Virus record (IMG/VR): IMGVR_UViG_2974580128_000001
DNA length: 64,000 bases
DNA from: a virus
Taxonomy: Duplodnaviria; Heunggongvirae; Uroviricota; Caudoviricetes; Herelleviridae
Strand: one strand, 5' to 3'
A program made the translations under genes and the position numbers. The notes beneath the pieces were generated by a model. That model ran no database searches, was not told the DNA's origin, and saw only the letters and a program-made list of their open reading frames with translations. Positions within the stretch are counted from its first letter, which is position 1. Each line of letters opens with the position of its first letter. Positions 325 through 43,392 of the stretch are shown in pieces.

Positions 325-1581
325 ATGGCAGGAGAAGTATTTAGTAGTTTGATTACAAGTGTTAACCCTAATTTGATGAACGCAGGTAGTCGTAACGGTA
401 TTGCTATTGACCGAATTATTCTACATCACAACGCAACAACAAATAAAGATGTTGCTATGAACACATGGTTATTAGGTGGTAGCGCAGGTACATCTGCTCA
501 CTATGAATGTACACCAACAGAGATTATTGGATGTGTCGGTGAACAGTACTCAGCATTCCATGCCGGAGGAACTGGTGGCGCAGATATTCCTAAGATTTCT
601 AACCCTAACCAACGTTCAATCGGTATTGAAAATGTAAATTCAAGCGGTGCTCCTAACTGGTCAATAGACCCTCGTACAGTTACAAATTGTGCTCGATTAG
701 TGGCAGATATTTGTAAACGTTATGGGATTCCATGTGACCGACAACATGTCTTAGGACATAACGAAGTGACTGCAACAGCATGTCCCGGAGGAATGAACGT
801 AGACGAAGTAGTACGTCAAGCAAAACAGTTTATGGCAGGTGGAAACAGCAGTACAGCTACAGCCACTCGTCAAGCATTCTTCGATGTTGTGAACGTAAAC
901 TCTGGTGCATTTAATGTGCAAGGATGGTTCATCCCTAGCAAGTCTACAAAAGGACAATCTATTTGGTTGTACTTTATGGACAAGAAAACGAATAAAGAAA
1001 TTGCTCGTTTCCAAGGTAAACGTGTAGTTCGTGAAGACGTTAAGAAAGTATATCCATCTAACCCTAACGGAGCAGATGTTGGTTTTAACGTTGATGGTGC
1101 AACTCCACAAAGTCTTATGGGCAAAGACTATTACTTCTTGTTACGTTACAACAACGATAACAAAGAAGAACTTTTCGTAACAGATAAAGTCTTTAAAGCA
1201 CCTGCACTAGTTAACCGTGGTTGCCTAGACGTAATTAGAGGTGACAAAGGTCAGGTTACTTTACATGGATGGCATTTATCTTCCAAACGTAGAAACTCTG
1301 ACAAACACTTCTTGTTCATCATGGATAAGAAAACGAATAAAGAAATTGTGCGTTTTGACGTTACAAAATCTTCATTCAAAGCTTCCCCAGATATTCAAAA
1401 ATTGTATGACGGTACAATTGCACAACGAACTAATTGTAGATTTGCTTTTGCTCATGCACTGGATGCTAAATCCCCTGCACGTGGTAAAGACATCTATATT
1501 TTAAGTCGTTACTGCTCTGACCCTGCGGGGAACAACGGGATTTCCGACCAGTTACAACTTGGTGGAACTCACAAATTGTAA
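325..1581 (+). CDS. Endolysin: Amidase_2 N-acetylmuramoyl-L-alanine amidase with two C-terminal repeat domains
   Basis: IILHH, SAHY, SIGIE, GHNEV..TACPG amidase motifs; N-terminus closely like Lys170/phiEF24C ORF9 as recalled; RBS GGAGG. Confidence 0.93.
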   Translation: MAGEVFSSLITSVNPNLMNAGSRNGIAIDRIILHHNATTNKDVAMNTWLLGGSAGTSAHYECTPTEIIGCVGEQYSAFHAGGTGGADIPKISNPNQRSIGIENVNSSGAPNWSIDPRTVTNCARLVADICKRYGIPCDRQHVLGHNEVTATACPGGMNVDEVVRQAKQFMAGGNSSTATATRQAFFDVVNVNSGAFNVQGWFIPSKSTKGQSIWLYFMDKKTNKEIARFQGKRVVREDVKKVYPSNPNGADVGFNVDGATPQSLMGKDYYFLLRYNNDNKEELFVTDKVFKAPALVNRGCLDVIRGDKGQVTLHGWHLSSKRRNSDKHFLFIMDKKTNKEIVRFDVTKSSFKASPDIQKLYDGTIAQRTNCRFAFAHALDAKSPARGKDIYILSRYCSDPAGNNGISDQLQLGGTHKL

Positions 1582-1590
1582 CATTATATT

Positions 1591-1618
1591 GACCTACCTT
1601 CTGGTGGGTCTTTTTTAT
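1591..1618 (+). terminator. Intrinsic terminator
   Basis: GACCTACC-TTCT-GGTGGGTC followed by TTTTTT. Confidence 0.85.
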
Positions 1619-1631
1619 TACTGTAATATAA

Positions 1632-1648
1632 TGTAAAGGAACTGTAAT
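1632..1648 (+). promoter_or_regulatory. WalR/VicR-type direct-repeat box
   Basis: TGTAAA-GGAAC-TGTAAT matches TGTWAH-N5-TGTWAH; more TGTAAH hexamers at 1577, 1622, 1665. Confidence 0.6.
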
Positions 1649-1677
1649 ACTATAGGACTAACTTTGTAACACTAATT

Positions 1678-1687
1678 TGCTATATTA
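1678..1687 (+). promoter_or_regulatory. Putative promoter TGCTATATTA (LysM gene)
   Basis: Recurrent decamer about 50 nt upstream of the start. Confidence 0.7.
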
Positions 1688-1738
1688 GTTCCTGTAAGCA
1701 ACACATAAAACTAAAACAACCCAAAGGAGAACGACAAC

Positions 1739-2347
1739 TTGAAGAAAACGACAATTGCAACATTAGGACTTTTAGGACTAGGACTATCATTAGGATTGGG
1801 AGCTAAAGCTCACGCAGACGAAATCCAAGAAAATGGACAAACTTACTGGCAAGTAGAATCCGGGGATACATTATCAACTATTGGTAATCGTTACGGAATT
1901 GATTTTAACTTAATTCACCAAGCAAACTCAGACAAAGTTTCAGATGCTAACTTGATTTATGTTGGGGACAAACTATTATTACCATTAAACGGTGAAGTTC
2001 AAGCTCCTGTAGCTCAACCAGTGCAAGAAGCACCAGTTGTAGAACAAGCGCCTGTAGTAGAAGAAACACCTGTAGTTGAACAGGCACCAGTTGTTCAAGA
2101 ACCAGTAGAACAAGCTCCTGCCGTTACATCTAACTCAGCAAAAGAATGGATTGCACAAAAAGAATCTAGCGGTTCTTACTCAGCAACTAACGGACGTTAC
2201 ATTGGACGTTACCAATTAGATGCTTCATACTTAAACGGTGACTACTCACCAGAAAACCAAGAACGTGTAGCAGATGCTTATGTTGCAGGACGTTATGGTT
2301 CATGGGAAAATGCACAAGCTTTCTGGTTAGCTAACGGTTGGTACTAA
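1739..2347 (+). CDS. Secreted LysM protein with Apf/spr0096-like lysozyme-fold C-terminal domain
   Basis: Signal peptide ending AHA; LysM (VESGDTLSTI...ANLIYVGDKL); PVVEQA linker; C-terminus IAQKESSGSY..GRYQL...WLANGWY; RBS AAAGGAGA, TTG start. Confidence 0.9.
   Translation: MKKTTIATLGLLGLGLSLGLGAKAHADEIQENGQTYWQVESGDTLSTIGNRYGIDFNLIHQANSDKVSDANLIYVGDKLLLPLNGEVQAPVAQPVQEAPVVEQAPVVEETPVVEQAPVVQEPVEQAPAVTSNSAKEWIAQKESSGSYSATNGRYIGRYQLDASYLNGDYSPENQERVADAYVAGRYGSWENAQAFWLANGWY
2003..2119 (+). repeat. Degenerate ~18-bp coding tandem repeat (PVVEQA/PVVEET linker)
   Basis: CCAGTTGTAGAACAAGCG, CCTGTAGTAGAAGAAACA, CCTGTAGTTGAACAGGCA, etc. Confidence 0.85.
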
Positions 2348-43375: not shown

Positions 43376-43392
43376 TGTAACTGTAATGTAAC
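43376..43392 (+). promoter_or_regulatory. WalR/VicR-type direct-repeat box
   Basis: TGTAAC-TGTAA-TGTAAC, ending 22 nt before TATACT (43415-20). Confidence 0.55.

Follow-up and report, generated by a model that had tools for sequence, protein, structure and literature searches.

WalRK is an essential cell-wall homeostasis system and a drug target. Its response regulator, WalR (also VicR or YycF), recognizes two direct hexamers with the consensus TGTWAH-N5-TGTWAH (PMC4168254), and operators of this type are found in Bacilli, those of Streptococcus mutans gcrR and gbpB having been footprinted. A match to this consensus lies in the 64,000-nucleotide stretch of viral DNA analysed here (the window; IMG/VR record IMGVR_UViG_2974580128_000001), which derives from an EFDG1-like Schiekvirus (Herelleviridae, Brockvirinae), and it stands in front of a gene for a secreted protein with LysM and Apf-like domains. 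The window box shares with the known WalR operators the direct hexamer repeat, the 5-bp spacer and the secreted wall-enzyme gene that follows. It differs from them in being found in a lytic phage, in being part of a four-hexamer ladder (10/11/22 bp) locked to a late-type -10 box, and in being a candidate WalR site.

Host response regulators acting on lytic-phage promoters are already known, as the cases of PhoB and Spo0A demonstrate. Cyanophage pstS and other genes carry Pho boxes for the host PhoBR system (PMC10976474), and what they have in common with the locus described here is a host-derived gene in a lytic phage with a site for a host regulator of the OmpR/PhoB family. In the cyanophages, however, the signal is phosphate, the host is a Gram-negative cyanobacterium, and regulation was demonstrated by electrophoretic mobility shift assay (EMSA) and expression, whereas for the window cell-wall status is a candidate signal. 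The Bacillus phages phi29 and Nf carry host Spo0A boxes that modulate phage promoters (PMC2731898). Spo0A belongs to another regulator family and represses early promoters and replication for spore entrapment; the element in the window, in contrast, concerns a single gene.

Kayvirus tgl, from the same phage family, encodes a secreted IsaA/SceD-like lytic enzyme related to proteins of the host WalR regulon and, like the LysM gene of the window, is a single-gene unit for a wall hydrolase with a signal peptide. It is transcribed from the late promoter pL67 and from a weak early promoter, p67, and so combines early with late control. Phage K tgl and the window share a near-identical core, ACTAATT..TGCTATATTA, and two TGTAAT hexamers lie upstream of it in phage K; these lie 9 bp from each other and do not fall on the 11-bp ladder, however, and a separate sigma-A promoter is located 3' of the late box. 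In the paper on Kayvirus tgl, WalR is mentioned only for the host genes isaA and sceD, and no WalR control of tgl is proposed. A literature search, which was not exhaustive, yielded no paper proposing WalR sites in a phage, and no direct target is named in a review of WalRK in enterococci.

The hexamer ladder and its conservation across phages

The 157-bp intergenic spacer between the amidase gene and the LysM gene contains four TGTAAH hexamers on the same strand (starting at 1622, 1632, 1643 and 1665, with spacings of 10, 11 and 22 bp), which lie on one face of the helix and in a fixed register with TGCTATATTA. Relative to the first base of the -10 hexamer, they start at -59, -49, -38 and -16, and the array ends 7 nt 5' of TGCTATATTA (1678-1687). 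The second and third hexamers (H2 and H3) constitute an exact WalR consensus, two direct TGTWAH hexamers with a 5-bp gap at 1632-1648, and this pair is placed just upstream of the -10 of a cell-wall gene. Five TGTAA words fall within 72 bp on one strand, a density that neither strand of the window reaches anywhere else. The array is unique there, being absent 5' of the other eight TGCTATATTA promoters. The features of the locus are as follows.

325..1581, + strand: upstream gene, endolysin-type N-acetylmuramoyl-L-alanine amidase (Amidase_2); open reading frame, Pfam PF01510 with E = 2e-20
1577..1582, + strand: TGTAAC hexamer overlapping the amidase stop codon, outside the element
1591..1620, + strand: intrinsic terminator of the amidase gene, with an 8-bp stem (1591-1610) and a T run; found by terminator scan and annotated as a terminator in phage 113
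1622..1627, + strand: H1, TGTAAT, 59 nt 5' of the first base of the -10 hexamer; GTAA core invariant in four lineages, first base C in Kochikohdavirus
1632..1648, + strand: H2 (TGTAAA, 1632-1637), 5-bp spacer GGAAC and H3 (TGTAAT, 1643-1648), the exact consensus pair
1665..1670, + strand: H4, TGTAAC, 22 bp downstream of H3, with 7 nt between it and the TG of the -10 box; AGTAAC in lineage L148 (see below)
1678..1687, + strand: TGCTATATTA, long -10 box of the Herelleviridae late class, lacking a -35; one of nine identical 10-mers in the window, with a Kayvirus match
1693..1698, + strand: TGTAAG within the conserved block AGTTCCTGTAAG just 3' of the -10 box; conserved in Schiekvirus, Kochikohdavirus and lineage L117 (see below)
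1723..1729, + strand: AAAGGAG, a ribosome-binding site 9 nt ahead of the TTG start; the phage 113 annotation has one in the corresponding position
1739..2347, + strand: secreted LysM and Apf-like ('transglycosylase') protein of 202 amino acids, with a TTG start and a signal peptide ending AHA/DE; Pfam LysM with E = 4e-10

The initial annotation of the window had reported the box TGTAAA-N5-TGTAAT at 1632-1648 together with hexamers at 1577 and 1665, and all of these are indeed present on the + strand at the distances it gave (55, 11 and 22 bp). Its set of hexamers needs to be amended, however: those at 1632, 1643 and 1665 belong to the element, but the one at 1577 is read as a chance occurrence because it is not conserved in Kochikohdavirus and is located 5' of the terminator, and the conserved hexamers at 1622 and also at 1693 had been overlooked.

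Over positions 1400-2450, the window is 99.3-99.5% identical to the Enterococcus phages PEf771, TJE2, Bop and EFDG1, and ~67-74% identical to Kochikohdavirus phages such as phiEF24C; the EFDG1 genome (147.6 kb) served as a stand-in for the whole phage genome. When eight Schiekvirus and three Kochikohdavirus sequences were aligned, the hexamers and their spacings turned out to be kept while the intervening sequence diverges. The consensus sequences of the two genera agree at 20 of 20 hexamer positions and at 12 of the 40 others (p = 1e-7), and within Schiekvirus, substitutions are confined to the sixth hexamer base (A, C or T) and to the spacers.

Two further lineages, L117 and L148, were recovered from IMG/VR using a pattern scan and a protein-guided scan. 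The pattern scan returned 42 matches, 35 of which are unrelated chance matches, and only the LysM loci were informative; a Listeria phage fragment was excluded, as its gene begins at the contig end. L117 is Brockvirinae-like, with 47% protein identity, whereas the L148 protein (39% identity) is nearest to that of Lactobacillus phage LfeInf. The four lineages, which span 39-60% protein identity, align without gaps over ~62 nt in the arrangement H1-N4-H2-N5-H3-N16-H4-N7-(-10 box). In this alignment, 18 of the 20 hexamer-core positions do not vary, compared with 4 of 41 positions elsewhere (p = 9e-10).

The N5 spacing is kept in Schiekvirus, Kochikohdavirus, L117 and L148, and a consensus-conforming pair is present in all five variants from Brockvirinae and IMG/VR, with the spacers GGAAC, AGAAC, GGCTA, GTAAT and GGTTC. 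Thus, the half-sites are selected, with only A, C or T at the sixth base, and the spacer is free. L148 has an additional hexamer at -27, giving six phased (A/T)GTAAY hexamers that include an exact box. By this comparative evidence, the element is a conserved operator under selection. The initial annotation had staked its proposal on conservation of the box where the gene is conserved, and this is what we find: the box is kept within Brockvirinae and in the two IMG/VR lineages.

In a different phage group, two IMG/VR contigs of ~80 kb (L149 and L150) carry TGTAAA-N16-TGTAAC before TGTTATAAT, ~30-85 nt before a gene with a LysM domain, and these hexamers, at -49 and -27 from the -10 hexamer, fall on the 11-bp ladder of the window. 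The LysM homologue of L148 (118-kb contig; 1117-1210, 2172-2957) lacks an in-frame ATG, GTG or TTG start downstream of the preceding stop; the ribosome-binding site GAAAGTGGG is followed by an ATT or ATC that could serve as the start, and a TnpB/OrfB-like gene comes after the LysM homologue.

The LysM protein and the arrays at its host homologues

The protein encoded downstream of the ladder matches PHROG 4602, 'transglycosylase' (E = 2.5e-64), an assignment backed by its host homologues. It is 46-56% identical to homologues in many Enterococcus species, Vagococcus and mitis-group streptococci, in agreement with the earlier description of the gene as host-like. The C-terminal Apf-like domain (2135-2344) is ~93% identical to a chromosomal paralogue of E. 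faecalis (L178:1604-2176) and ~86% identical to the Kochikohdavirus orthologue, whereas for the N-terminal LysM part the phage orthologue is the nearer of the two, which suggests exchange with the host at the level of domains.

Upstream of the host homologues, the strict WalR consensus occurs at 2 of 77 loci, both in E. asini. A tolerant scan combined with a position weight matrix nevertheless revealed an array at ~33 of the 77 loci, in Enterococcus and Tetragenococcus, and at 19 of these the score exceeds that of any control. The host block reads YGTMAY-N4-TGTYAY-N5-YWTYAC and is followed by CTATGAAAT, ~9 nt and an extended -10, TGnTAAAGT; the corresponding regular expression gave 0 matches in 194 kb of control DNA. 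Its hexamers are located at -48, -38 and -27 from the -10 hexamer, compared with the four phage positions given above and the additional -27 of L148. Judged from these positions, the host and phage arrays stand on the same 11-bp ladder and in the same register.

Searching the E. faecalis genome for the host pattern with at most one mismatch gave nine matches, of which only those before two near-identical LysM/Apf paralogues have both the array form and a related gene. One of these arrays (L027) is flanked by transporter genes, and next to the other (L178) lies a small gene that is unrelated and runs on the opposite strand. One of the two paralogues is probably EF0443, the operator of which seems to have gone undescribed so far. 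Because the array is kept throughout the genus in uninfected bacteria, a host protein must read it, and we think it likely that this protein is a response regulator. The arrangement is compatible with capture by the phage of the gene together with its operator; a host-derived gene in a lytic phage, with an array that is also present at the host homologues, is what characterizes a host-regulated phage auxiliary gene of the cyanophage pstS/PhoB type.

The two E. faecalis paralogues (L178:1501-1527 and L027/L175) are ~16 kb apart on the chromosome. Each has an inverted N4 hexamer pair (TTACA..GTTACA) ~20-40 bp 5' of its triple array.

The late-class promoter of the LysM gene

On the + strand of the window, TGCTATATTA occurs nine times (257, 1678, 2405, 3431, 5629, 7507, 11849, 15283 and 39307), preceding lysis and structural genes (amidase, LysM, CHAP, protease and capsid genes among others) and usually located right after a terminator. 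The late promoters of Kayvirus, as defined by RNA sequencing (RNA-seq), have a long -10 box, TGTTATATTA, lack a -35 and have been ascribed to a phage sigma factor (PMC7698491). Late promoter pL67 of Kayvirus tgl is exactly TGCTATATTA (PMC7698491). The box at 1678-1687 fits this class, having the form TGYTATATTA, no -35 and a position before a lysis or structural gene, and a promoter scan detected no canonical -35/-10 promoter in the amidase-LysM spacer. The LysM gene is therefore served by a promoter of the late class and not by one of host type. TGCTATATTA can also be read as an extended -10 (TGn + TATATT), and as such its sequence is a good one for host sigma-A. Transcription probably starts near the block AGTTCCTGTAAG (1693); in Kayvirus, the initiating base is found 6 nt past the late box, with G enriched (PMC7698491).

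Four RNA-seq runs from one 2023 study contain a near-identical phage with 4 base differences in 1000-2600 and 0 in the hexamers. The runs were available as contigs spanning the whole of 1000-2600, which carry no starts, ends, levels or timing.

We also considered an early sigma-A promoter inside the array, with H4 read as TGTAAYAYT or with the TATAAT at 1627, and rejected it, the candidate -10s being weak or not conserved. A reading of TGTAAGCAACACA as a cre-like site was likewise rejected, as it has one mismatch and is non-palindromic. The replication genes at 44-63 kb have TTGACA-17-TATACT promoters instead of the late box.

Candidate regulators and competing explanations

In EFDG1, a search for OmpR-type (Trans_reg_C) proteins found none encoded, and E. 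faecalis encodes 11 such regulators. One of them, L185, is a YycF/WalR equivalog with a score of 433.5 bits against a cut-off of 340, and its DNA-binding domain matches the solved structures of E. faecalis VicR (2HWV), B. subtilis YycF (2D1V) and S. aureus WalR (2ZXJ). The phage hexamers obey TGTWAH at every position and in every lineage. Apart from a single W position, the box of the phage 113 subclade matches the VicR site of S. mutans gcrR, including its AGAAC spacer; the gcrR site is a DNase-footprinted, high-affinity VicR site (PMC4168254). In streptococci, VicR targets include the LysM genes lysM of S. mutans, on the basis of EMSA (cited in PMC4168254), and spr0096 of S. pneumoniae (PMC3343019). 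That L148 has the fullest array suggests a factor common to Bacilli. On this evidence, WalR is the best candidate for the binder, and we regard it as an even call whether it is the protein that binds.

Both the identity of the binder and the direction of its effect are what we infer; what we observe is the anatomy of the element, the selection on it in the lineages compared, the corresponding arrays at host genes, a WalR encoded by the host and an EFDG1 gene set devoid of OmpR-type proteins. A host response regulator of the OmpR/PhoB family, most probably phosphorylated WalR (WalR~P), would bind the hexamers, with a WalR dimer on H2-N5-H3 and further contacts at H1 and H4. Once bound, the regulator would either modulate the late promoter or, in the manner of the host genes, allow sigma-A polymerase to use the extended -10 without a -35. 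The amount of wall-remodelling enzyme made would thereby track the peptidoglycan and growth status of the host, and late in infection the phage sigma factor would use the same -10. Tentatively, we can picture a lytic phage that plugs an enzyme into WalRK through an 'idealised' copy of the operator of the host LysM/Apf genes, placed in helical register with a single -10 that is used early by sigma-A, together with WalR~P, and late by the phage sigma factor; the array, of high affinity and multicopy on replicating phage DNA, might in addition titrate WalR from host autolysin genes; this complete scheme is possible, although we would not bet on it.

If a host regulator does control the gene, a phage of the type used in therapy against Enterococcus would sense the wall and growth state of its host via host signalling, which would bear on its behaviour on stationary-phase, biofilm and antibiotic-stressed cells. 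It would also add wall homeostasis in Gram-positive pathogens to the functions for which phages hijack host two-component systems, alongside phosphate in cyanophages and sporulation in phi29. Whichever protein binds, the locus offers a deeply conserved, gap-free operator-promoter module for study, and a previously unremarked conserved operator is present at enterococcal LysM/Apf genes, probably including EF0443.

Several observations weigh against WalR. The promoter is of the phage-sigma late class, and a host regulator or sigma-A would have to act there. The enterococcal host arrays (TGTMAY / TGTYAY / TTTYAC) deviate from TGTWAH, and their proximal pair, with ~3 mismatches in 12 and a C at position 4, is a poor WalR box. 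WalR-regulon membership of the homologues holds in S. pneumoniae and S. mutans, but EF0443 (LysM), probably the homologue in E. faecalis, is reported as a member of the CroRS regulon and as one of the genes with the strongest induction by teixobactin and other wall antibiotics (PMC6506618). In phage K tgl and Lactobacillus phage LfeInf, the same late -10 is preceded by TGTAAT-N3-TGTAAW, with N3 in place of N5. Binding by B. subtilis WalR is reported to be lost when the spacer is 1 bp longer (PMC4168254), and a WalR dimer is not expected to fit an N3 spacing. Finally, the bare TGTWAH-N5-TGTWAH occurs at chance level in the window, with 2 matches found and 1.59 expected; in EFDG1, the 17-bp consensus occurs 3 times, compared with 2 in the reversed control, and in E. 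faecalis (2.7 Mb) 23 times, mostly intragenic, compared with 32. The strict consensus alone is not predictive in E. faecalis, where only the matches at an atlA-like gene and an LCP gene look relevant.

The CroRS listing of EF0443 and its induction by wall antibiotics would be readily accommodated if the array were an operator for another of the 11 OmpR-type regulators of the host, be it CroR, some other envelope-stress regulator or PhoP acting on the opposite strand, in which case the gene would follow envelope stress or phosphate. The host hexamers TGTCAY and TTTCAC are off TGTWAH and akin to the Pho-box hexamers of E. coli, and TGTAAA-N5-TGTAAA, read on the opposite strand, is a PhoP-type box of the kind found before E. 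faecalis pstC. However, the CroR-dependent motif TTTATTAA is absent from the array and not conserved nearby, and CroRS is reported to be absent from S. aureus and B. subtilis, yet the fullest array is that of L148, which is nearest to a Lactobacillus phage. A PhoP site (TTHACA) is ruled out in most lineages by the sixth hexamer base, which varies, and this reading fits only some of them. We consider a different OmpR-family regulator unlikely, although it deserves to be taken seriously. The hexamers could also be read by a phage factor, or constitute an upstream element of this particular late promoter, with the resemblance to WalR sites and to the host arrays being coincidental. Distant Herelleviridae have N3 pairs before the late -10 of their counterpart of this gene, which points in that direction, as do the late-class -10 box itself and the TGTAAG-type words that recur in the replication-gene promoters of this phage. 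Against this stands the finding that uninfected host chromosomes have the same 10/11 triple array, in the same -10 register, before homologous genes across the genus; moreover, the array is present at only one of the nine late promoters, and EFDG1 lacks an OmpR-type DNA-binding domain, the search having been for this fold. Such a phage-based explanation strikes us as rather improbable. A chance AT-rich consensus in an AT-rich spacer, conserved through close kinship only, would account for the expected rate at which the 17-bp consensus occurs in the window, the phage genome and the host genome. It is contradicted by the genus-consensus and four-lineage comparisons, in which conservation is specific to the hexamers, the spacers have diverged and the exact spacing is kept at 39-60% protein identity (p ~1e-9), and the TGTAA cluster is the densest in the window; we regard chance as very improbable indeed.

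The proposal of the initial annotation that the phage had captured a WalR-regulon gene with its operator survives in part. The operator is conserved, and host arrays share its 10/11 spacing and register; the off-consensus host hexamers, the placement of EF0443 under CroRS and the N3 spacing in phages K and LfeInf speak against the assignment to WalR. The alternative offered at the time, a phage factor shared with the replication promoters, has lost ground, given that the array occurs once in the genome and is also found before host genes.

A few further matches were noted. The CroR motif TTTATT in the terminator tail (1612-1617) was discarded, as it is not conserved in Kochikohdavirus or L117. 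A second exact WalR-type match in the window, at 43376-43392, comprises three overlapping TGTAA words and begins 5 nt after the stop of a tail-protein gene. It lies where homology ends (~43371) to relatives that lack the downstream HNH endonuclease gene, and we rejected it as a WalR regulon member, as it marks the border of a mobile HNH cassette. In E. faecalis, a PhoP-type box, TTTACA-N5-TTTACA, is located ~100 bp before a pstC-like gene (L170; G002:C6:191399-191415), and an exact WalR consensus is found in a divergent spacer before the gene for an AtlA-like glucosaminidase with LysM repeats (L161; G002:C2:301479-301495).

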